Below are positions 7,767 to 50,665 of a stretch of 64,000 nucleotides of DNA, piece by piece (position 1 is the first letter of the stretch; each line of letters begins with the position of its first letter). The notes under the pieces are model-generated. The model had not been told where the DNA came from and did no database searches. It was given only the letters and a program-made list of their open reading frames with translations. A program made the position numbers and the translations under genes. Source of the DNA: a virus (taxonomy: Duplodnaviria > Caudoviricetes); IMG/VR virus record IMGVR_UViG_3300031994_000057, positions 1 to 64,000 of that record. The stretch is one strand, 5' to 3'.

Positions 7767-8072
7767 CTATTTAATTATAAGAGTCTCAATAATCTTGAGT
7801 TCATTTATTATATTCAGTTGTATTTCTTTGATCCTATTTTCAAATAGGCATTTAACCTTCTTATCATCTAAATCAAACGTAAACACATTATGTTTACCTG
7901 TCAGTGTATTTAATCCTTCATATCGAATATTTACACCAGATTTAATGCCTAATTCTTCAGCAGGAACCTTAATGAAGTAATATCCACTACAATATTTATA
8001 ATTAGTTGTGGATAAATGTTTTAATTCACCATCTTCTATATAGTATCTATAAAGTGGTTTATTATCTTCCAT
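7767..8072 (-). CDS. hypothetical protein, first gene of an early operon
   Basis: AAAGGAG RBS directly downstream of the early-type promoter. Confidence 0.75.
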   Translation of the reverse strand: MEDNKPLYRYYIEDGELKHLSTTNYKYCSGYYFIKVPAEELGIKSGVNIRYEGLNTLTGKHNVFTFDLDDKKVKCLFENRIKEIQLNIINELKIIETLIIK

Positions 8073-8118
8073 ATATTTAATCTCCTTTCGTTTAATGGAA
8101 ATATTGTTTGCTTATTAC

Positions 8119-8700: not shown

Positions 8701-9811
8701 ATATTCAATGAATTCGCTTAATTTTGGCTATGATTTTGTTAATCCCGTTATACCAGGATCAACTAATACACCACAGCCTGTTACTACACCTCAGCAATTA
8801 CCTTCATATCAGATAAATACTACTTTAGCTAATGCTTCTGATCCTGTTATAGAAGGACCTAAGAAATCTATCTTTACTGTAAGACCTGATGAGGTTAAAC
8901 CTACTAAGGGAGCTATATTACCTGCTCCTGATGCACCTCAGATGCCAACTACAAGAAGAAAAAAGAAAGAGAATGAAACAGATACTACTGCTATTGTTAG
9001 AGCAGGTGATAGTAATCTTCCTGCAAATAATAACAAAGAGTTATCTACAATGTATAATTATGCTCAGACTACAGCACTCTTAGGTAATACTCTATCTCAA
9101 GCAGATGAATTAGCTAATGATTTAATGTCTGAGTTTGATAATATTAAAAACAGTAGAACTCTTAAGAATAAGTATATGATTCTTACTAACTTATCTCAGT
9201 CTATGAGTCAGTTATTGAATACAAAAGCTACTATTCTTAGAGAGATTAATAGTAGTATTACTAAAGCTACTGAACTTGATTACAAGAAAGAAAAGGATAG
9301 ACTTGCTGCTGAAGGTGCAGCTAATGATGATAAGTATATCATGGATCTCTATAGCAGTTTCATTAATAATCCTGCAAATGGTGTTAATGGAAGTCCTGCT
9401 ACATTAGCTCCTACTCCTATAGCAAATACTGTAGCTTCATCTGCTAACTTAGGTGGAATTATTAGATCGCCTTTAGCTGGTTCTAATCCTCCTCCTGCTG
9501 GTCAGCCTGTTGATGTAGGATACTTGAATTACTTAAGTAGAATTACACCTCAACAGAATAGTATGATTATGGAGAGTGATCCTAACTGTAAGATTTGTGT
9601 AGTATATGACGTACAAACAGGAAACAAATTCTTCAGTGCAATGAATATGGCAACAGGTATGACTGTACCTAATGTAGATTTACCTTCCGATAGATTTATT
9701 CAGGACTTAACAATAGACCTTCAGAATAATGTAGCAAAGAATGCTAATCTTCATATGGTTTATCCTCTTGTCGTAATCAATAATGATTCAAATATAGCAC
9801 AGAATTACTAA
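8693..9811 (+). CDS. hypothetical protein (Pro-rich, central coiled coil)
   Basis: 372-aa ORF overlapping the previous stop. Confidence 0.8.
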   Translation: MSEYSMNSLNFGYDFVNPVIPGSTNTPQPVTTPQQLPSYQINTTLANASDPVIEGPKKSIFTVRPDEVKPTKGAILPAPDAPQMPTTRRKKKENETDTTAIVRAGDSNLPANNNKELSTMYNYAQTTALLGNTLSQADELANDLMSEFDNIKNSRTLKNKYMILTNLSQSMSQLLNTKATILREINSSITKATELDYKKEKDRLAAEGAANDDKYIMDLYSSFINNPANGVNGSPATLAPTPIANTVASSANLGGIIRSPLAGSNPPPAGQPVDVGYLNYLSRITPQQNSMIMESDPNCKICVVYDVQTGNKFFSAMNMATGMTVPNVDLPSDRFIQDLTIDLQNNVAKNANLHMVYPLVVINNDSNIAQNY

Positions 9812-9820
9812 AAAATAAAA

Positions 9821-9845
9821 GCCAGAGAGTATTATACTCTCTGGC
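9821..9845 (-). terminator. hairpin terminator of cassette A
   Basis: gccagagagt-attat-actctctggc; U-tract on the minus strand. Confidence 0.75.
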
Positions 9846-9869
9846 TTAGTAATAGATTATCACCACGAT

Positions 9870-9881
9870 AACACAATAGTA
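9870..9881 (+). promoter_or_regulatory. antisense late-type promoter of cassette A
   Basis: AACA CAATAG TA, 2 nt before the inverted leader copy 9884-9905. Confidence 0.6.
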
Positions 9882-9998
9882 ATATGAATAAAGCTTTAGA
9901 GAAGATTTAAATATTACTTTGCTTTAGTTATAACATGGAGTTTGATTAATCTATATAAGATATAATCATGAGATATATGTTTCTGATAAATAGTGGGG

Positions 9999-10136
9999 CT
10001 ATTTATACAGAATTTTATCAATTATCCAGGACATAATCCTATAGATAAGTCGATTGTCGATATGATAACGGTAGCATACGAACATCCAAAATCGGACTTC
10101 GATGTACTCTCTAATCAAAGATGATAATCTTTTCAT
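9999..10136 (-). CDS. cassette A small protein, 45 aa (MKRLSSLIREYIEVRFWMFVCYRYHIDNRLIYRIMSWIIDKILYK)
   Basis: Hand-translated; AAAGGATGTGAT RBS; paralogous to B, E and H. Confidence 0.75.
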   Translation of the reverse strand: MKRLSSLIREYIEVRFWMFVCYRYHIDNRLIYRIMSWIIDKILYK

Positions 10137-10182
10137 AGATATCACATCCTTTGCATGATTATTTCTTCTCAGCTTTATTCAT

Positions 10183-10214
10183 ATTTATAATATATAATTG
10201 AAATATTGAACTTT
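10183..10214 (-). promoter_or_regulatory. early-type promoter of cassette A
   Basis: AAAGTTCAATATTTCAATTATATATTATAAAT directly before leader ATGAATAAAGCTGAGAAGA. Confidence 0.7.
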
Positions 10215-10232
10215 AACTAAGAAAAAATAAAA

Positions 10233-10257
10233 GCCAGAGAGTATAATACTCTCTGGC
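10233..10257 (-). terminator. hairpin terminator of cassette B
   Basis: gccagagagt-ataat-actctctggc; same stem as 9821-9845. Confidence 0.75.
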
Positions 10258-10281
10258 TTAGTAATAGATTATCACTGTATT

Positions 10282-10293
10282 AACAATGAAATA
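10282..10293 (+). promoter_or_regulatory. antisense late-type promoter of cassette B
   Basis: AACA ATGAAA TA before the inverted leader copy 10296-10317. Confidence 0.6.
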
Positions 10294-10407
10294 ATATGAA
10301 TAAAGTTATAGAGAAGATTTAATATTATTCATTTAGGTTATATACAGCTTTTGATTAATCTATAAAGATATAATCATAAAAATATATACTAACTAATAAC
10401 GTGGTGG

Positions 10408-10542
10408 TTATTTAGTAAGCTTCATAAGAAGCCAATACAATATTTTATGTATTGGCTTCTCATTGTGTATAAGATGGCGGTATATCAATATACCAATTTG
10501 GATATCAATATAACTCTTAATCAAAGAAATAATTCTTTTCAT
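10408..10542 (-). CDS. cassette B small protein, 44 aa (MKRIISLIKSYIDIQIGILIYRHLIHNEKPIHKILYWLLMKLTK)
   Basis: Hand-translated; AAAGGTGGTGAT RBS. Confidence 0.75.
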   Translation of the reverse strand: MKRIISLIKSYIDIQIGILIYRHLIHNEKPIHKILYWLLMKLTK

Positions 10543-10591
10543 AAGATGTATCACCACCTTTATGATTATATTTCTTCTCAACTTTATTCAT

Positions 10592-10624
10592 ATCTATAAT
10601 ATATAATTGAAATATTGAACTTTA
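10592..10624 (-). promoter_or_regulatory. early-type promoter of cassette B
   Basis: Same motif as at 10183-10214. Confidence 0.7.
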
Positions 10625-10639
10625 ACTAAAAAATAAAAG

Positions 10640-26669: not shown

Positions 26670-26845
26670 AAAGAGTGGTGGTGAAGCCAAACCTCGTTCA
26701 ATTTATTGAACAATATGCTCGCACCCTTAGAGCACTTAAGCAAATTGCAACAATTTGTCCCCAAAGACAAGAGAACTAACCCCCTTTTGTTTATAAGAGT
26801 TACATTATAAAACTAACGTCAAAATGCCCTTCGCTTACCACTCTT
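26670..26845 (+). ncRNA. candidate ~175-nt structured RNA with paired ends
   Basis: AACT-N6-TA at 26659-26670; AAGAGTGGT (26671-79) pairs with ACCACTCTT (26837-45); internal hairpins; followed by a T-run. Confidence 0.45.
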
Positions 26846-26934
26846 GCCTTTTTCTTTTTAGTTCTGCCATACTATTAGAAAAAATAAAAGAGGTAGGGAA
26901 CTAATCCCTACCTCTTTTGCTCTGTTATTCAATT

Positions 26935-27713: not shown

Positions 27714-27998
27714 TTAATGTAACATAAACATAGCGGTTTGTAATTCCTCAATAAACTCTACAGCTTCAGAATCATTAGATACTTTCTTCTTTAAGTTCTT
27801 AAGCATCTTTTCATCTTTTTTCATTTCGACGACTTCATTAAACGCGAATCTTAGATTAGATAAATAAATTCTTTGAGTGTTTGTTGTCTCAAAATCATCT
27901 TCTAAGAATCTTTCTAAGTCAATATGAGCATCTTTACAAACCAGTGTAAGAAACATCTTTAAGTCTTTACTCATTGGTGGCGTTTTTGATTTTCCCAT
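27714..27998 (-). CDS. hypothetical protein, first gene of an early operon
   Basis: AAAGGAG RBS after the early-type promoter. Confidence 0.75.
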   Translation of the reverse strand: MGKSKTPPMSKDLKMFLTLVCKDAHIDLERFLEDDFETTNTQRIYLSNLRFAFNEVVEMKKDEKMLKNLKKKVSNDSEAVEFIEELQTAMFMLH

Positions 27999-28042
27999 AT
28001 TATTAATCTCCTTTCATAATGGAATATTGTTTGTTTATACAC

Positions 28043-28086: not shown

Positions 28087-28098
28087 AACTATATAATA
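28087..28098 (+). promoter_or_regulatory. antisense late-type promoter of cassette C
   Basis: AACT ATATAA TA overlapping the start of the inverted leader copy 28098-28111. Confidence 0.6.
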
Positions 28099-28163
28099 GA
28101 AGCATAGAAGATAGAAATTAGATTAATACCTTCAAAACTTATTATTCAATAGAATAAAAGTCA

Positions 28164-28337
28164 TTAAAAGATATTACTATCAGGCACGATAGTCTCGTTA
28201 ATCTTTTCTTTAAGATATAACGATAAATAAGATGTGATGATATAAATGGTTTGGCATTTAATATCATTGTCTTTCATATATCTATGGTAATATATCACTG
28301 ATATATTATGAAGAATATAATATAGACAATCTATCAT
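28164..28337 (-). CDS. cassette C small protein, 57 aa (MIDCLYYILHNISVIYYHRYMKDNDIKCQTIYIITSYLSLYLKEKINETIVPDSNIF)
   Basis: Hand-translated; AAAGGAG RBS; paralog of D. Confidence 0.75.
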   Translation of the reverse strand: MIDCLYYILHNISVIYYHRYMKDNDIKCQTIYIITSYLSLYLKEKINETIVPDSNIF

Positions 28338-28376
28338 TATTTAATCTCCTTTCTTAATATTTCTTCTATGCTTCTT

Positions 28377-28411
28377 ATCTATATTATATATTATTGAAAT
28401 TATATACTTTT
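28377..28411 (-). promoter_or_regulatory. early-type promoter of cassette C
   Basis: AAAAGT-N7-TTCAATAATATATAATATAG. Confidence 0.65.
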
Positions 28412-28426
28412 ACCATTATACAATAC

Positions 28427-28438
28427 AACTATATAATA
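28427..28438 (+). promoter_or_regulatory. antisense late-type promoter of cassette D
   Basis: AACT ATATAA TA before the inverted leader copy 28438-28451. Confidence 0.6.
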
Positions 28439-28516
28439 GAAGCATAAGAGATTAAAGAGTAGAGAATAACCAATAAACTTCGCTTGCTAATTATATATCT
28501 ACACTGTAACCATTAA

Positions 28517-28666
28517 TTACAGTCCATTAATCTTTTCTTTAAGATATAATGACAGATAATATAATACAATATAAATTACATAGAATTTAATATTGTTTTT
28601 CTTCTTATATTCATTTAAATATATCAGAGATATATTATTGCTGAGAATATAAAGATAATCAGTCAT
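28517..28666 (-). CDS. cassette D small protein, 49 aa (MTDYLYILSNNISLIYLNEYKKKNNIKFYVIYIVLYYLSLYLKEKINGL)
   Basis: Hand-translated; AAAGGAG RBS; shares YLSLYLKEKIN with C. Confidence 0.75.
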   Translation of the reverse strand: MTDYLYILSNNISLIYLNEYKKKNNIKFYVIYIVLYYLSLYLKEKINGL

Positions 28667-28705
28667 TGAAATAACTCCTTTCATTTTATTTCTCTTATGC
28701 TTCTT

Positions 28706-28740
28706 ATCTATATTATATATTATTGAAATTCCTTACTTTT
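28706..28740 (-). promoter_or_regulatory. early-type promoter of cassette D
   Basis: Same motif as cassette C. Confidence 0.65.
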
Positions 28741-28781
28741 ATATTTTGACATATTAATAAAAATATATAGAAAGTGAGGGA

Positions 28782-29088: not shown

Positions 29089-29877
29089 TTATAAATCCAT
29101 AAAGTCATTAAATAGATTACCATGTAATTCTTGCATTCTCTGCATCTCTATATCATCTTCATCTCCAAATATTTCATTAGGAAGTAATATCATAGTCCTC
29201 ATACCATTCTCATTATCTGGTTCATGATATGCATTATGAATAGCTTTTCTAAATGTAGGATCAGTACCCATCATATATCTGACTTGATCGTCTTCTCTAT
29301 CTCTGATTTCTTTCTCATAATCTTGATAGAGAATACCAGTTTTATTCCTATCATTTAGATACTGCATTTGAGATTGTATATCGTCATCATCTATATATTC
29401 ATATACATCTACATTGACAGTTTCACCTTTGGAATCTCTTTCAATATCACCATCTACTATCTCTTCATCTTCATCTGTTTTGATAGTATTCTTCATGATA
29501 TTCCAGTTTTCCATGACGTTCTTACCGTCATACCAGACATACATAGCCATGAGATATGAAAATACTTGGTCATCATGAGTATTATCAGAGTGCTCTACTT
29601 TACCGTTACGCTTCACTTGCATGCCGAGCATCTCTTCATAAAGAATAGGAGCAATAAATTTATCCTTATGATAATTTACTCTATCATATAATAACTCTAT
29701 TAATCTAGCACGAACTTCTTTATTAGAATTCAATCCATATACTTTAACAAGAGCATTACGTTTACCAACCATATGACCAGTGATTACTTCTTCTATAACC
29801 TTTTCTTTAATTTCAAAGTATAGATTCTTCTTTACATTAGTCTTAACAAGTCTTTGGACAACACTTCTTCCAAAACC
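29089..29877 (-). CDS. terL: terminase large subunit, exon 2
   Basis: GFGRSVV...EHSDNTHDDQVFSYLMA (nuclease DD motif); continues the exon 1 nuclease domain. Confidence 0.8.
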   Translation of the reverse strand, partial: GFGRSVVQRLVKTNVKKNLYFEIKEKVIEEVITGHMVGKRNALVKVYGLNSNKEVRARLIELLYDRVNYHKDKFIAPILYEEMLGMQVKRNGKVEHSDNTHDDQVFSYLMAMYVWYDGKNVMENWNIMKNTIKTDEDEEIVDGDIERDSKGETVNVDVYEYIDDDDIQSQMQYLNDRNKTGILYQDYEKEIRDREDDQVRYMMGTDPTFRKAIHNAYHEPDNENGMRTMILLPNEIFGDEDDIEMQRMQELHGNLFNDFMDL

Positions 29878-30311
29878 GTATAGTTTCATTATAGTCGCAA
29901 CTCTATAATGTATGGTCAATTCCATATCACTCCCATTACAGGACGTGACCAGATCATGTGTCATTCCTATTATGCATTTAATAGGACCGGTATTTTTCTT
30001 CCTCCATAAGCTTGAGGTTCTACTCCCTCGTCAAGGGATGATCGTTGAACGTATATCTCTATGAGATATTTCGCTGCTATACCTGGGCTTGTTAATGATA
30101 ACTTAGGATTTAACCTTATTATCGTCTTAATAACTTTTTTCTACTTTCGTAACTATCACGCTTATCATTACTGATTACGTTGTAGCATATTAAGCTCTAA
30201 CCCATTATCATAGCAATTAACACCGTTGAAACTTACAGGTTACCCTATAAGCTGAGACATATAGAAATATATCAACTACCATTACACTGGTAGAAATCAT
30301 TCCTAATCTGC
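29878..30311 (-). mobile_element. ORF-less group I intron in terL (ends uncertain by a few nt)
   Basis: P3 cggtgtt/aataccg, P4 tgctat/atagca, gttcaacg motif, P7 gatcat/atgatc and P9 hairpins; interrupts IELN(G)...GFG. Confidence 0.8.
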
Positions 30312-31730
30312 TCCATTGAGCTCGATATTTACTACCGAGGTTGGCATATATTGATTCACTAGTACATATATTAAGTCTGCAAGATCATCTTGTGGTATAA
30401 AATTACAATGGAATGTGGCACAAACACGAGTTGTTCGTGAATCTACTACTGTAATTGCAGATGAATCTCGCATAGCAGCACCAGATACATCGACTCCAAT
30501 AATAGGAGGGTATGTGAGGTCAATATCTTCATATACATCAAATAAGTATTGACCAACTCTACCAAACTTAAGAGTTCTAATAGGCTCTCTACAATGTGCT
30601 TTGATAATTTCAAGGTCTTCCATATTAAATGCTGCATTTTCTGTAATGGTCTCCCACTCAAGTAATACTTCTCGTCGTATCTTAGGCCAATCGTTTGCCA
30701 TCTGTGTACATATTTCTGAGAACCACTCTTCTGATAATCCCAATTGTTTATATGAGAATTTGATATAGAAGAACATTGATTGTGTATTGGCTTTTCTTAA
30801 TTCCTCTAATTGCTCATATGAGTAGTCGAGATATGATTCATCCCATCTACTAGACTTATTAATCAACTCTTGTGCATACTGTCCTTCCTTAGTGACAGGA
30901 TCACCAGGAGTTGATGCTATGAATACTCCATAAGGAGCATTATAGCTCTTTGCTATAGAAGCAGCTTTAGAATATGCAGGAATAGCTGCAGCATATACTG
31001 TTTTATTATAAGGCATAAATGCAAACTCATCATAGAACTGTAATGGCATAGTACAACCTCTTCCCAGTTTATCTGCAGCATCTTCTGATCTAGCAGAAGG
31101 GAATGTAACTATAGTGTTATGATTTAGTGGATGCTCCATTTTCTCTACAGTATTAGGTACTTTTAATTTCTGACCATTTGCATTTGTTACAGCTTCCATT
31201 CTAAGATAATTAGGTAATGTATCTCTAATCTCTTTTAATACTTTAAGATTTTCCTTAGAACCAGAATGTGCTTTATGGATAAACATCATCTGTGAGTTGG
31301 TTGTTCCGAAGTTATATAACCATAAGTAACGAATTCTGGCTGTGGTTGTTTTACCAGACTGTCGAGGAAGTTCTACATACATACTATAATTTAGTATGAA
31401 TAAAAAGTTCATCGCTAAGCCTGCTCTATCTAACTTATATCTAGCGCCTCCTGAAGCAGAACTACCCGTTTGTGGTACTCTAACAACTTCTCTTAAGAAA
31501 TACCAATAATTAACTCGTATTTCATTTAATACCATTGCTTTTTGCATTACAGAAAGATTTGGATCTCTCGGGTCTACTCCTGCTAATGCAGGATTATATA
31601 AAGCTAAAAAGAAGTCATTATTTCTAACACCAATACGTTTTAGATAATAATGCATATCCATGAACGATTGGTTGGTAGTTTCACGCTGTATGTATATTTT
31701 AATAGGGGCTACTACTTGTTCTTGAACCAT
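30312..31730 (-). CDS. terL: terminase large subunit, exon 1
   Basis: Walker A LPRQSGKTT, Walker B QFYDEFAF, ASTPG and nuclease IGVDVSG; AACA-N6-TA at 31756-31767. Confidence 0.9.
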
Positions 31731-39375: not shown

Positions 39376-39502
39376 TGAAGTGGATTAAGAAAATCTACTT
39401 TAAAAAGGAGATTCGTAATGCAAACAATTATTTTTTCTAACCCGAGTCAATAGCAAATCAATAATATAAGGGAAATTGAATATTGACAAGGGGGTTTATG
39501 TG

Positions 39503-49021: not shown

Positions 49022-49071
49022 GAAATAGCCAGAGGAGTATAATACTCCTCTGGTGTTTTATTTTTTTTTTA

Positions 49072-49105
49072 TAAAAGTTAGATATTTCAATAATATATTA
49101 TATCT
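49072..49105 (+). promoter_or_regulatory. early-type promoter of cassette E
   Basis: AAAAGTTAGATATTTCAATAATATATTATATCT. Confidence 0.7.
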
Positions 49106-49146
49106 ATGAATAAAGTTGAGAAGAAATAATTGTGGAGGCTATATGT

Positions 49147-49284
49147 ATGAGAAAGCGACTTAGCTTCATTAAAGATTATTTCGATACTAAATATTGCGAA
49201 ATCATATATAGACATGATATCCACAATGAGAAATTTATCCATAAAATAATTTATTGGATAATCTCAAAAACCATTATTAAATAG
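49147..49284 (+). CDS. cassette E small protein, 45 aa (MRKRLSFIKDYFDTKYCEIIYRHDIHNEKFIHKIIYWIISKTIIK)
   Basis: Hand-translated; GGAGG RBS; shares YRHxIHNEKxIHKIxYW with B. Confidence 0.78.
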   Translation: MRKRLSFIKDYFDTKYCEIIYRHDIHNEKFIHKIIYWIISKTIIK

Positions 49285-49395
49285 CCACCAACTATTTATA
49301 TTGGTATATCTAGATAATTAATCATCTGATTAATGAGTATCATAATAACAATATGTGAAATGGTATAACAATCTTCTCAATAACTTTATTCATAT

Positions 49396-49407
49396 TATTT
49401 CATAGTT
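49396..49407 (-). promoter_or_regulatory. antisense late-type promoter of cassette E
   Basis: Minus strand AACT ATGAAA TA, 2 nt before the inverted leader copy 49373-49393. Confidence 0.6.
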
Positions 49408-49431
49408 ATTATGATATTAATATCTTAATAG

Positions 49432-49460
49432 AGAAAGAGGAGCATAATACTCCTCTTTCT
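49432..49460 (+). terminator. hairpin terminator of cassette E
   Basis: agaaagaggag-cataata-ctcctctttct plus T-run. Confidence 0.75.
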
Positions 49461-49473
49461 TTTTTTATAAAAA

Positions 49474-49506
49474 AAAAGTAGATTATTTCCATAATATATT
49501 ATATCT
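49474..49506 (+). promoter_or_regulatory. early-type promoter of cassette F
   Basis: AAAAGTAGATTATTTCCATAATATATTATATCT. Confidence 0.65.
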
Positions 49507-49551
49507 ATGAAAGAAACTAGAATAAATATAAAGAAAGGAAAATTAATAGAT

Positions 49552-49704
49552 ATGAGAAGAATTGTATTTAATCTTAGATCTAAACTTGATGATATTTATA
49601 TCTCCAGATATTATGAAGATATGATTTCTGATTGTGATAGGTCTTTCTATTATAATATTTTAAAATACTTATGTATCTTTCTTTATAAGATCGAGCATCT
49701 ATAA
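49552..49704 (+). CDS. cassette F small protein, 50 aa (MRRIVFNLRSKLDDIYISRYYEDMISDCDRSFYYNILKYLCIFLYKIEHL)
   Basis: AAAGGA RBS before ATG 49552; the track start 49507 lies in the leader. Confidence 0.72.
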   Translation: MRRIVFNLRSKLDDIYISRYYEDMISDCDRSFYYNILKYLCIFLYKIEHL

Positions 49705-49792
49705 TTATCGCAACTAATTATAGATGAGATATCAATCAAGTTAATATTATATCCCAATTTCTATATATTGACTATATTCTAGTTTCTTTCGT

Positions 49793-49804
49793 TATCTTAA
49801 AGTT
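49793..49804 (-). promoter_or_regulatory. antisense late-type promoter of cassette F
   Basis: Minus strand AACT TTAAGA TA before the inverted leader copy 49775-49790. Confidence 0.6.
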
Positions 49805-49823
49805 AACCTAGTTTTATTTTTTT

Positions 49824-49858
49824 GTAAAAGTTGGTTATTTCAATAATATATTATAGAT
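49824..49858 (+). promoter_or_regulatory. early-type promoter of cassette G
   Basis: AAAAGTTGGTTATTTCAATAATATATTATAGAT. Confidence 0.7.
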
Positions 49859-49903
49859 ATGAAAGAAACTAGAATAAATATGGTACAAAGGAGATGATAT
49901 AAT

Positions 49904-50056
49904 ATGAAGCCTTTGCTTAATAAAGCTAGGTCTATTATAGATACTAAATATATTTATATCTTATATGAACTCACACTTCAGAATAAGAATAATAGTATTA
50001 TCTGTAATATATTATCTATAATTAGTAATGTATTATATACATTAGAGAATTTATAA
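49904..50056 (+). CDS. cassette G small protein, 50 aa (MKPLLNKARSIIDTKYIYILYELTLQNKNNSIICNILSIISNVLYTLENL)
   Basis: Hand-translated; AAAGGAG RBS. Confidence 0.75.
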   Translation: MKPLLNKARSIIDTKYIYILYELTLQNKNNSIICNILSIISNVLYTLENL

Positions 50057-50137
50057 AATAAATTCATATCTTCATAACTCCATAAGTTAATATAATTCCC
50101 AATTTCTATATATTAACTATATTCTAGTTTCTTTCAT

Positions 50138-50149
50138 TATCTCAAAGTT
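50138..50149 (-). promoter_or_regulatory. antisense late-type promoter of cassette G
   Basis: Minus strand AACT TTGAGA TA directly before the inverted leader copy 50120-50137. Confidence 0.6.
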
Positions 50150-50167
50150 AATCATGTTTTATTTTTG

Positions 50168-50201
50168 TAAAAGTAGATTATTTCAATTATATATTATAGA
50201 T
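50168..50201 (+). promoter_or_regulatory. early-type promoter of cassette H
   Basis: AAAAGTAGATTATTTCAATTATATATTATAGAT. Confidence 0.7.
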
Positions 50202-50245
50202 ATGAATAAAGCCATGAAGAAATAAATTCATGGAGGATATTTAGA

Positions 50246-50384
50246 ATGATTGATAAGATTAAGAATTCAATTATTCAATATTTAAGAGGCAAGATATATT
50301 ATTTTGTACTATTTAAATATCATCCACGAAGAGACAAAAGCCCAGAGCATTGAGCTCTGGGTATTGTCCAAAATTCTTAAATAG
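50246..50384 (+). pseudogene. cassette H small protein, frameshifted (35 aa as read; ~45 aa if repaired)
   Basis: MIDKIKNSIIQYLRGKIYYFVLFKY runs on to TGA 50351-53; the shifted frame gives IHEETKAQSIELWVLSKILK*, matching the A/B/E C-termini. Confidence 0.6.
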
Positions 50385-50502
50385 TCTCACCACTATTAAG
50401 AATAAATCTGTAATAAGTTAAATTTCCTCACAAGAATTTAACGAGTATCACAATACAATATGTAAAGTAATAATCAAATCTTCATTACAGCTTTATTCAT
50501 AT

Positions 50503-50514
50503 TACTTTATAGTT
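50503..50514 (-). promoter_or_regulatory. antisense late-type promoter of cassette H
   Basis: Minus strand AACT ATAAAG TA before the inverted leader copy 50480-50500. Confidence 0.6.
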
Positions 50515-50538
50515 ATTGTGGTATTAATATCTTAGCAA

Positions 50539-50566
50539 AGAAAGAGGAGCACATACTTCTCTTTCT
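50539..50566 (+). terminator. hairpin terminator of cassette H
   Basis: agaaagaggag/cttctctttct plus T-run. Confidence 0.7.
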
Positions 50567-50665
50567 TTTTTTTACGTAGGGTCTATAGATTGAGTCTTAA
50601 CTTTATTATAATATGTATATTTAGTAAAAATTTATATATAATAATTCTAAAAGGAGGATTATACT

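Follow-up and report, generated by a model that had tools for sequence, protein, structure and literature searches.

Early mini-gene cassettes with self-complementary mRNA ends in an AR9-like jumbo phage

Positions 49029-50570 of the window, the whole 64,000-nucleotide stretch that was analysed, hold four tandem units described in an earlier note as small-protein cassettes whose transcripts have self-complementary ends and face a convergent antisense promoter. Why should the start of a short phage mRNA be complementary to its own tail? The window lies within an 87-kb fragment of an uncultured AR9-like jumbo phage, a relative of Bacillus phage AR9. A homologue of AR9 g145, the β′ subunit of the virion RNA polymerase (vRNAP), was found at contig positions 66931-68697 (tblastn against AR9, E = 8e-52), and DNA polymerase and terminase homologues are also encoded. 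The Pfam RNA polymerase domains PF00562 and PF00623 had no match in the contig. The units are best explained as self-contained early accessory-gene units of this phage.

Anatomy of the cassettes

Direct reading of the sequence located the four units, E-H, where the earlier note had placed them, together with its four further units, A-D, at 9.8-10.6 and 28.1-28.7 kb. Each of the eight contains an early promoter, a 5′ arm at the predicted start site (+1), a Shine-Dalgarno sequence (SD), an ORF of 35-57 amino acids, a 3′ arm about 260 nt downstream of the leader and a late-type motif on the opposite strand. The predicted mRNA is roughly 300-360 nt long. The SD lies about 26-30 nt from the predicted +1, which replaces the 16-21 nt leader proposed originally. 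In window coordinates the features are:

49028-49064: intrinsic terminator of the upstream gene and left bound of the array, scoring on the plus strand at 49028-49054 and on the minus strand at 49053-49029
49074-49107, plus strand: early promoter of E, AAAGT-N5-ATTTCAAT-AATATATTAT-N6 (AR9 consensus), with predicted +1 at G 49108
49108-49124, plus strand: 5′ arm of E, the first 17 nt of the predicted mRNA
49147-49284, plus strand: ORF of E, 45 aa, with SD GGAGG at 49134-49138 and a conserved hairpin at about 49227-49265
49372-49391, plus strand: 3′ arm of E, pairing with 49108-49124 around a 3-nt bulge
49396-49407, minus strand: convergent late-type promoter of E, AACT-N6-TA, with predicted antisense +1 at 49396
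49430-49469, plus strand: terminator of E
49475-49524, plus strand: early promoter and 5′ arm of F (arm 49509-49524, predicted +1 at 49509)
49552-49704, plus strand: ORF of F, 50 aa, with a hairpin spanning the stop codon
49775-49804: 3′ arm of F (49775-49790, plus strand) and adjoining late-type promoter (49793-49804, minus strand), with no strong terminator after them
49827-49876, plus strand: early promoter and 5′ arm of G, with predicted +1 at 49861 and the repeat reaching 49859
49904-50056, plus strand: ORF of G, 50 aa
50120-50149: 3′ arm of G (50120-50137, plus strand) and late-type promoter (50138-50149, minus strand)
50170-50219, plus strand: early promoter and 5′ arm of H, with predicted +1 at 50204 and a local leader hairpin competing with the clamp
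50246-50353, plus strand: ORF of H, 35 aa, cut by a TGA located in a hairpin loop; the hairpin, at 50341-50361, is GC-rich
50480-50514: 3′ arm of H (about 50480-50500, plus strand) and late-type promoter (50503-50514, minus strand)
50537-50575, plus strand: terminator of H and right end of the array
10222-10630, minus strand: cassette A, with predicted +1 at 10589, 5′ arm 10573-10589, ORF 10408-10542, 3′ arm 10298-10317, late-type AACA-N6-TA on the plus strand at 10282-10293 and terminator 10233-10257
9811-10221, minus strand: cassette B, with predicted +1 at 10180, 5′ arm 10164-10180, ORF 9999-10136, 3′ arm 9886-9905, late-type motif on the plus strand at 9870-9881 and terminator 9821-9845
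28427-28745, minus strand: cassette C, with predicted +1 at 28705, 5′ arm 28691-28704, ORF 28517-28666, 3′ arm 28438-28451, late-type motif on the plus strand at 28427-28438 and no terminator
28087-28426, minus strand: cassette D, with predicted +1 at 28376, 5′ arm 28362-28375, ORF 28164-28337, 3′ arm 28098-28111 and late-type motif on the plus strand at 28087-28098

The flanks of the cassettes are about 90-100% identical, and the ORFs share 32-57% amino-acid identity with saturated synonymous sites. Judged by its truncated ORF and a leader that favours a local hairpin, H appears to be a degenerate copy.

Promoters, paired ends and coding constraint

The early-type promoter reported in front of each unit matches the AR9 vRNAP consensus, and the predicted +1 is the first paired base. 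With ≤3 mismatches allowed, the window has 9 occurrences of the core TTATTTCAATAATATATTATA, where 0.16 would be expected; the core fits the AR9 early consensus AAATATATATTAT-N6-G(+1). In AR9, early vRNAP promoters have the form AAATATATATTAT-N6-G and late promoters of the non-virion polymerase the form AACA-N6-TA/G, the latter lying 20-60 nt in front of late genes (Lavysh et al. 2017, PMC5312081). The early box, its spacing and the predicted G start are shared with AR9, which has a vRNAP where the contig has a β′ homologue. Sigma-70-like sites were not enriched (22 versus 18.8 expected). About half of the recognisable early promoters in the fragment drive cassettes, which makes the cassettes a major part of the early programme.

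The complementarity proposed for F (49509-49524 with 49775-49790, 16 nt) and G (49859-49876 with 50120-50137, 18 nt) is perfect. That of E and H is present as two blocks interrupted by a bulge of 3-4 nt. The stems span 14-22 bp. A promoter-anchored scan gave scores of 27-36 in eight of eight units, compared with values always below 28 for the reversed, not complemented control in the cassette phage genome. Moreover, a promoter-free detector (inverted repeat of ≥13 nt enclosing an SD and an ORF of 30-80 aa) returned exactly the eight cassettes from the 87-kb contig and nothing else; on AR9 and the related genomes G003, G005, G006, G008 and G009, about 1.1 Mb in total, it returned zero matches. 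Each leader pairs best with its own 3′ arm, the mean duplex energy being -22.0 kcal/mol versus -7.4 kcal/mol across families, and compensatory changes separate A from B, C from D and E from H. Pairing with the next unit, in which the arms would bracket the intergenic promoter block, was rejected, the arms of A/B, C/D, E/F and G/H fitting their own leaders only.

Folding predicted that nt 1-16 pair with the 3′ arm with a probability of 0.85-1.0 in 12 of 13 cassettes. For H the value was 0.03, its leader preferring the local hairpin. The helix covers nt 1-17 or 2-15 and leaves the SD, at nt 26-33, outside. The probability of the SD being unpaired varies from 0.01 to 0.75, and no conserved anti-SD was found. 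In another early transcript (predicted +1 at 39377), the first nucleotide already belongs to a local hairpin of 10 bp (z = -3.4); burial of the 5′ end is therefore a recurring theme in the cassette phage.

Searches for relatives were carried out at several levels, with about 1.3 Mb scanned in all. BLASTN of 47-53 kb against the phage collection gave no match, the flanking 265-aa gene used as query found no relatives, and a scan for the early-promoter pattern with N5 spacing matched six contigs. A related phage with a 61% identical terminase carries three cassettes with unrelated leaders and peptides. All three retain the terminal complementarity, as the earlier note had asked of homologous cassettes, and its proposal that pairing rather than sequence is conserved is upheld by them and by the compensatory changes between paralogues. 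Four terminase relatives (52-53% identity) had no cassettes in the 7.5-21 kb loci around the terminase gene. Leader complements occurred at control frequency in whole-genome scans of AR9, G005, G006 and G009; at the 38 promoter sites scanned in AR9 the signal was level with that of the control, and AR9 itself is without such cassettes. Candidates in G005 (-77329, 12 nt) and G003 were within chance expectation. A 16-nt candidate in G008 (+6124), in which the leader complement lies 490 nt downstream, past two ORFs, and is followed by a T-run, is suggestive only. On comparative sequence evidence, the cassette design is judged to be real and its 5′/3′ self-complementarity to be under selection.

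On the opposite strand, AAC[AT]-N6-TA is located 0-4 nt outside the 3′ arm in all eight units. The motif first given as AACT-N6-TA holds with one amendment: A and B carry AACA, the rest AACT. In refined form (AAC[AT]-N5-RTAR), 32 of 49 occurrences are intergenic in a genome that is 13.5% intergenic, and the motif stands 10-70 nt before 14 ORF starts versus 1.9 expected. It is shared with AR9, precedes the terminase and other ORFs, and is a credible candidate for a late promoter. AR9 late promoters drive antisense RNAs late in infection (PMC5312081). The most abundant of these differ from what is predicted here in that they cover g125 and g126, which are late structural genes and not early mini-genes; both were rejected as analogues. 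In the three cassettes of the related phage the late motif is found only as one-mismatch variants (GACA or TACA), so that the part of the model that concerns antisense RNA may apply to the cassette phage alone. An apparent antisense ORF in a cassette of the related phage was dismissed for want of a credible SD.

The ORFs claimed in the earlier note proved to be real coding sequence under purifying selection, with dN/dS of 0.15-0.31, well below 1, in all five pairs compared. All intact copies have kept a good SD, and their ORFs are similar in length. No peptide homologues were found by word search, and HMMER against 1.84 billion representatives gave one marginal match (3e-4), to a 258-aa protein, which was taken as spurious. 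Nothing below E = 0.02 was obtained for the peptides from Pfam and PHROGs. AlphaFold, one of the checks proposed at the outset, returned a single long amphipathic helix for E and, for the A/B/E family, a lone helix (pLDDT 75), an uninformative result.

Function of the paired ends

The preferred reading, to which a probability of about 0.45 is assigned, is that the cassettes produce small early mRNAs, each with its 5′ end clamped and protected, and that late antisense RNA silences them. Anatomy, covariation, constraint on the ORFs and the statistics of the promoter motifs are established from the sequence; the two transcript starts, when each RNA is made, stabilisation by the clamp and silencing are predictions drawn from them. 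The vRNAP would initiate at the G six bases past the early promoter box, and the first 14-20 nt of the mRNA would pair with its own 3′ UTR, closing the molecule as a clamp. With the 5′-triphosphate end buried, the short message would be shielded from 5′-end-dependent decay while its SD stays usable; this decay logic (RNase J1/Y) is borrowed by analogy from Bacillota. The small basic helical peptide that would be made early probably serves host takeover or is an accessory factor. Late in infection, initiation by the non-virion polymerase would shift to the AAC(A/T)-N6-TA promoter adjoining the 3′ arm. The antisense RNA is predicted to open with nearly the same bases as the sense leader and would therefore be able to displace the leader from the clamp and pair with the whole message. 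The resulting sense-antisense duplex would be an RNase III substrate, and antisense transcription would also collide with the remaining sense transcription, turning the gene off. Inconsistent masking of the SD agrees better with protection than with translational locking.

The ompA, aprE and ermC leaders are 5′-terminal stabiliser stem-loops of bacterial mRNAs. Like them, the cassette helix starts at or beside nt +1, a geometry that blocks 5′-end-dependent decay. Those leaders, however, form local hairpins, whereas the partner strand in the cassettes lies some 260 nt further along the mRNA and is coupled to a promoter facing the other way. As a local 5′ hairpin would be the cheaper end protection, the long-range design probably does something more. 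A programmable clamp-and-unclamp switch is conceivable, with the odds clearly against it: a message closed end to end from its first nucleotide would be unclamped, through strand displacement, by a stage-specific antisense RNA that starts as a leader copy, and would thereby be destroyed. Sense and antisense would then be mirror-image clamped RNAs made by two phage RNA polymerases. The clamp is imperfect at two positions, one in H and one in the related phage unit at 9703. Both are C·A in the sense RNA and U·G in the antisense RNA; their pairing only in the antisense hints that the antisense RNA's own clamp may matter.

It is unlikely that the cassettes are type I toxin-antitoxin-like, with toxic peptides, a 5′-3′ pairing that keeps the full-length mRNA inert (as for hok and aapA1) and a convergent antisense RNA as antitoxin (as for txpA/RatA and bsrG/SR4). 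The hok (tac/fbi) and aapA1 mRNAs are type I toxin mRNAs with a 5′-3′ long-distance interaction, and txpA/RatA and bsrG/SR4 are Bacillus type I systems with 3′-convergent antisense RNAs. The cassettes resemble them in the pairing of the extreme 5′ end, terminal nucleotides included, with a 3′ segment, in a highly structured mRNA (z = -7.98 for E) of about 300-400 nt encoding a peptide of <60 aa rich in Tyr, Ile and Leu, and in a cis-encoded convergent antisense RNA, here predicted from the motif at the 3′ end. The selected pairing, the coding ORFs and the credible convergent motif are the parts of the toxin proposal that stand. Uncharged stretches of 15-19 residues in G and C speak for it, but the peptides as a whole do not: a long run is found only in G (19 residues), C and D (15), and runs are ≤8 residues in A, B, E, F, H and two of the three related-phage peptides. 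Most (8 of 11 without an uncharged run >13 residues) are basic amphipathic helices lacking a transmembrane-length run, contrary to the suggestion of membrane-active toxins, and the related phage's peptides are unrelated to those of the cassette phage and not hydrophobic. Since the clamp covers the first 14-20 nt and SD masking is inconsistent, hok-like translational locking does not follow from the predicted folds. The putative antitoxin promoter is of the late-phage type, predicted to be stage-specific where that of type I systems is constitutive, so the antitoxin would be absent while the toxin is made, a poor fit to an addiction module. No toxin or antitoxin RNA family was matched, Rfam giving sub-threshold noise only.

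Somewhat less likely still, the long-range stem would be a 3′-end or processing signal, either a terminator hairpin for the phage polymerases or a stalk at which RNase III would trim both ends and so leave a stable mature mRNA. RNase III processing stalks are known from rRNA precursors and T7 or SP82 early RNAs, and the stems are of about RNase III substrate size. C, D, F and G have no other good terminator, and a leader complement followed by a T-run occurs in the two more distant phages G005 and G008 at the sites given above. Nevertheless, the G005 example lies within chance expectation, no U-tract follows the arm in the cassette phage, and a separate local terminator stands 40-50 nt past the 3′ arm in the related phage and in A, B, E and H, where it is a strong intrinsic one. 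A hairpin with a 250-nt loop would also be kinetically unusual as a terminator.

That the folded RNA is itself the effector, or has a dual function with the peptide secondary, is improbable. Helices within and past the ORF are conserved with compensatory changes, their G·U pairs working on the sense strand only; the flanks are much better conserved than the ORFs; and H keeps its internal hairpin in a wholly different sequence despite the truncated ORF. H has also lost the clamp, however, and so looks like decay rather than a pure-RNA variant. The low dN/dS and the SD and ORF kept in every intact copy argue against this explanation, and no exposed conserved seed sequence was seen.

Least probable is that the inverted repeats act on DNA, as MITE-like terminal repeats or recombination/inversion sites with flanks that mediate PeSL-like (promoter-early stem-loop) shuffling and RNA pairing as a by-product: copies do occur at three loci with conserved flanks and divergent cargo, and covariation alone cannot tell an RNA helix from a DNA inverted repeat, but the arms begin at the predicted +1 of the early promoter and of the opposite promoter, which is RNA logic, direct reading of the loci revealed no target-site duplication, no transposase or invertase was noticed beside the arrays, a separate recombinase specificity would be required for each of at least five unrelated arm sequences, and in all 11 cassettes the ORF is in sense orientation behind the early promoter, so that no inversion is seen.

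Relation to known systems and significance

The cassettes are a variant of known designs, and the variant itself is new. T4-type phages carry PeSLs, a kind of mobile regulatory cassette (Arbiol et al. 2010, PMC2839356). In PeSLs and in the present cassettes alike, small orphan early genes occur singly or in arrays, and a highly conserved promoter-plus-terminator block brackets variable cargo; in PeSLs, mini-circles arise by recombination between such blocks. PeSLs, however, use host sigma-70 promoters and a local stem-loop, whereas the cassettes use an AR9 vRNAP-type promoter, and PeSLs have neither pairing of the mRNA start with its tail nor a convergent late promoter. The icaR mRNA of Staphylococcus aureus folds its 3′ UTR back onto the 5′ UTR, and the double strand so formed is a substrate of RNase III (Ruiz de los Mozos et al. 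2013, PMC3868564). This is likewise an mRNA, from a member of the Bacillota, that pairs its own two UTRs, but the target in icaR is the SD and the outcome translational repression, whereas in the cassettes the 5′-terminal 14-20 nt are paired.

The cassettes also point to a reservoir of small early proteins that evolve fast, and it is among such proteins that host-takeover and anti-defence functions are usually hidden. If the clamp protects and the late antisense RNA opens it, the cassettes would provide a compact, sequence-programmable means of timing expression post-transcriptionally, one that couples both multisubunit phage RNA polymerases. Pairing of 5′ and 3′ mRNA ends, so far a matter of a few bacterial mRNAs (hok, aapA1, icaR), would then include an entire class of viral messages, and giant phages may use clamping and unclamping generally, as a layer of temporal control or RNA protection that is as yet undescribed.

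Source phage and cassette anatomy

The window covers positions 1 to 64,000 of an 86,940-bp IMG/VR viral contig with a GC content of about 31%. CheckV estimated the contig to be about 35% complete, implying a genome of roughly 250 kb; DNA polymerase, terminase and a GroEL-like chaperonin are among its PHROG matches. BLASTN against a phage collection gave no match. Comparison of the contig ORFs with Bacillus phage AR9 by tblastn gave 14 matches, including DNA polymerase and the split terminase. A homologue of the AR9 virion RNA polymerase β′ subunit (g145), missed by Pfam RNA polymerase domains, was also found by tblastn outside the window at contig positions 66931–68697 (30% identity over 415 aa, E = 8e-52). 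These matches mark the phage as a distant jumbo relative of the AR9/PBS1 type. Two minus-strand ORFs (29089–29964 and 30303–31730), both matching AR9 terminase, together encode the terminase large subunit. The gap of about 340 nt between them is probably an intron, since the CDS of AR9 terminase is itself assembled from 5 segments.

A 21-nt early promoter core occurs nine times in the window (0.16 expected) and fits the AR9 early consensus, which was defined experimentally and has its start at a G six bases past the box (PMC5312081). On the basis of this match, +1 was placed at the corresponding G in each cassette. Direct reading of the sequence confirmed the anatomy proposed in an earlier note at all three regions: early promoter, leader (5′ arm), SD, small ORF, 3′ arm and an opposite-strand late-type motif.

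Predicted +1 positions of the eight cassettes, each following an AR9-type early box
10589, minus strand, cassette A
10180, minus strand, cassette B
28705, minus strand, cassette C
28376, minus strand, cassette D
49108, plus strand, cassette E
49509, plus strand, cassette F
49861, plus strand, cassette G
50204, plus strand, cassette H

In every unit, the sequence from +1 or +2 onward is complementary to a segment beginning 250–287 nt downstream.

The early box is common to many 200–265 kb IMG/VR contigs; an extended box with an upstream AAAGT was found in only six. This element lies 5 nt upstream of the TTTCAAT box in early promoters (49074–49078 in E, the equivalent place elsewhere), and its opposite strand, AACTT, resembles the start of the late motif. 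Two ordinary minus-strand early units (8072–8116 and 27996–28040) have similar leaders, each about 45 nt long; these 5′ UTRs are paralogous and contain a UUUCC stretch able to pair with the SD, but neither has a 3′ complement.

Predicted pairing of the transcript ends

The complementarity of leader and 3′ arm is beyond chance by three controls. Scores from downstream sequence that was reversed and left uncomplemented stayed below those of the cassettes throughout this genome. A promoter-free detector (inverted repeat of 13 nt or longer, 150–450 nt apart, enclosing an SD and a 30–80 aa ORF) returned exactly the eight cassettes in the 87-kb contig, and none in AR9 and the related contigs G003, G005, G006, G008 and G009 (about 1.1 Mb in total). 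Seven other early promoters of the contig had no leader complement within 4 kb.

Thermodynamic folding of predicted transcripts gave a probability of 0.85–1.0 that nt 1–16 pair with the 3′ arm, forming a clamp, in 12 of 13 cassettes. The minimum free energy of the E transcript was −92.9 kcal/mol, compared with −56.7 ± 4.5 in dinucleotide shuffles (z = −7.98). Leaders formed duplexes of −22.0 kcal/mol on average with their own arms and −7.4 across families. Within families, too, each leader's best partner was its own arm (own versus other, in kcal/mol: B, −21.6 versus −16.5; C, −22.0 versus −16.0; D, −22.0 versus −15.3; H, −17.4 versus −11.5 to −15.1), owing to compensatory differences between copies: GTT/AAC in A versus GCT/AGC in B, AAGAG versus AGAAG in C and D, and GAG versus ATG in E and H. 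An arrangement in which the arms bracket the next unit's intergenic promoter block was rejected because leaders fit their own arm best.

Besides the clamp, RNAalifold predicted for A, B, E and H a conserved hairpin within the ORF, another directly past the 3′ arm, and a terminator, with 17 pairs maintained by double changes. The antisense alignment folded worse (−30.9 versus −35.1 kcal/mol), losing the post-arm hairpin and converting G·U pairs to A·C mismatches, so that the internal helices belong to the sense RNA. The clamp itself is not attributable to one strand, its two imperfect positions being C·A in the sense and U·G in the antisense RNA.

About 1.3 Mb of related sequence was fetched. 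Three cassettes occur in a single related phage represented by two short contigs (G002 and G007; terminase 61% identical). Their leaders and peptides are unrelated to those of the window, and every leader again complements its own 3′ arm. Two of the copies differ by C/T in one arm and, correspondingly, by G/A in the other. These observations uphold the earlier suggestion that pairing is conserved and not sequence, and provide independent support for selection on pairing. In this phage a terminator hairpin follows the arm, and the late motif is present on the opposite strand only in GACA or TACA form. Leader complements were not above control in distant phages (terminase 46–53% identical), and a whole-genome scan of AR9 revealed no cassettes of this kind.

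At 77329 (−) in G005 (L122) and 6124 (+) in G008 (L132), an early-leader complement (12 and 16 nt, respectively) leads directly into a T-run, as if the mRNA 5′ end served as the upstream strand of a terminator hairpin; the G005 complement does not exceed chance expectation. Separately, a non-cassette early transcript at 39377–39401 (+) is predicted to form a local 10-bp hairpin from nt +1 (−9 kcal/mol, z = −3.4), which would be a second means of 5′-end burial in this phage.

Putative convergent promoters and encoded peptides

The opposite-strand motif reported in the earlier note was recovered as AAC(A/T)-N6-TA, the AR9 late consensus (defined in PMC5312081), in all eight units. It lies 0–4 nt outside the arm, so the predicted antisense RNA would open with a sequence nearly identical to that of the sense RNA. 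A refined motif, AAC[AT]-N5-RTAR, occurs 49 times in the contig; 32 of these sites are intergenic, though intergenic sequence makes up only 13.5%. Fourteen lie 10–70 nt ahead of a same-strand ORF start, terminase included (1.9 expected). Ten intergenic sites are cassette antisense sites, eight abutting the arm and a second inside it in F and G. Most of the remainder point into same-strand genes, making convergent late-type promoters special to the cassettes.

Two further late-type motifs were observed on the plus strand. One, with its predicted +1 at 26670, precedes a gene-free stretch (region 26670–26850). The other (10624–10635) lies between the cassette A promoter and the upstream terminator, antisense to the preceding minus-strand operon; being within an A-run, it may be a chance occurrence.

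The peptides form a weakly alignable single family with three subfamilies, and neither they nor the RNAs matched any protein family, homologue or RNA family in searches. Paralogues share about 90–100% identity in the promoter, leader, 3′ arm and opposite-strand motif but only 32–57% amino-acid identity in the ORFs, conserved flanks with variable cargo being a pattern typical of regulatory cassettes. H is a decaying copy: a stop codon within a GC-rich hairpin loop cuts its ORF to 35 aa, and its leader favors a local hairpin (clamp probability 0.03).

Interpretation and relation to known systems

The cassettes are real and well supported as structures; their function is putative. The predicted helix starts with the transcript's first base and excludes the SD, whose masking is inconsistent, the opposing promoter motif is fixed at the arm's outer edge, and the design is kept despite sequence change. 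For these reasons the best fit, held tentatively (probability about 0.45), would be an early mini-mRNA closed and protected by its clamp, which late antisense RNA would open, destroying the message.

The peptides are mostly basic and amphipathic, and AlphaFold models that of E as one helix. Their proposed membrane activity fared poorly, as most have uncharged runs shorter than a membrane span needs. A type I toxin module is an unlikely account of the cassettes. A stalk for termination or RNase III processing is somewhat less probable again. That the RNA itself is the effector is more doubtful still, and dN/dS values of 0.15–0.31 (Nei–Gojobori, synonymous sites saturated) indicate translated, constrained ORFs. 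A DNA-level repeat is the least credible alternative.

The ingredients are each known: AR9 early and late promoters, PeSL-type cassettes, 5′–3′ mRNA pairing and convergent antisense RNAs. Pairing of the two ends within one mRNA occurs in hok and aapA1. It is also described for icaR (PMC3868564), and PeSL are conserved promoter–terminator cassettes around orphan early genes (PMC2839356). AR9 makes late antisense RNAs (PMC5312081), but the clearest cases lie over late structural genes, and AR9 lacks such cassettes. The combination was not found in the literature searched. This combination, which would be new, comprises a start-anchored clamp, a stage-specific opposing promoter fixed to the clamp's edge, and the recurrence of both in many jumbo-phage early genes.
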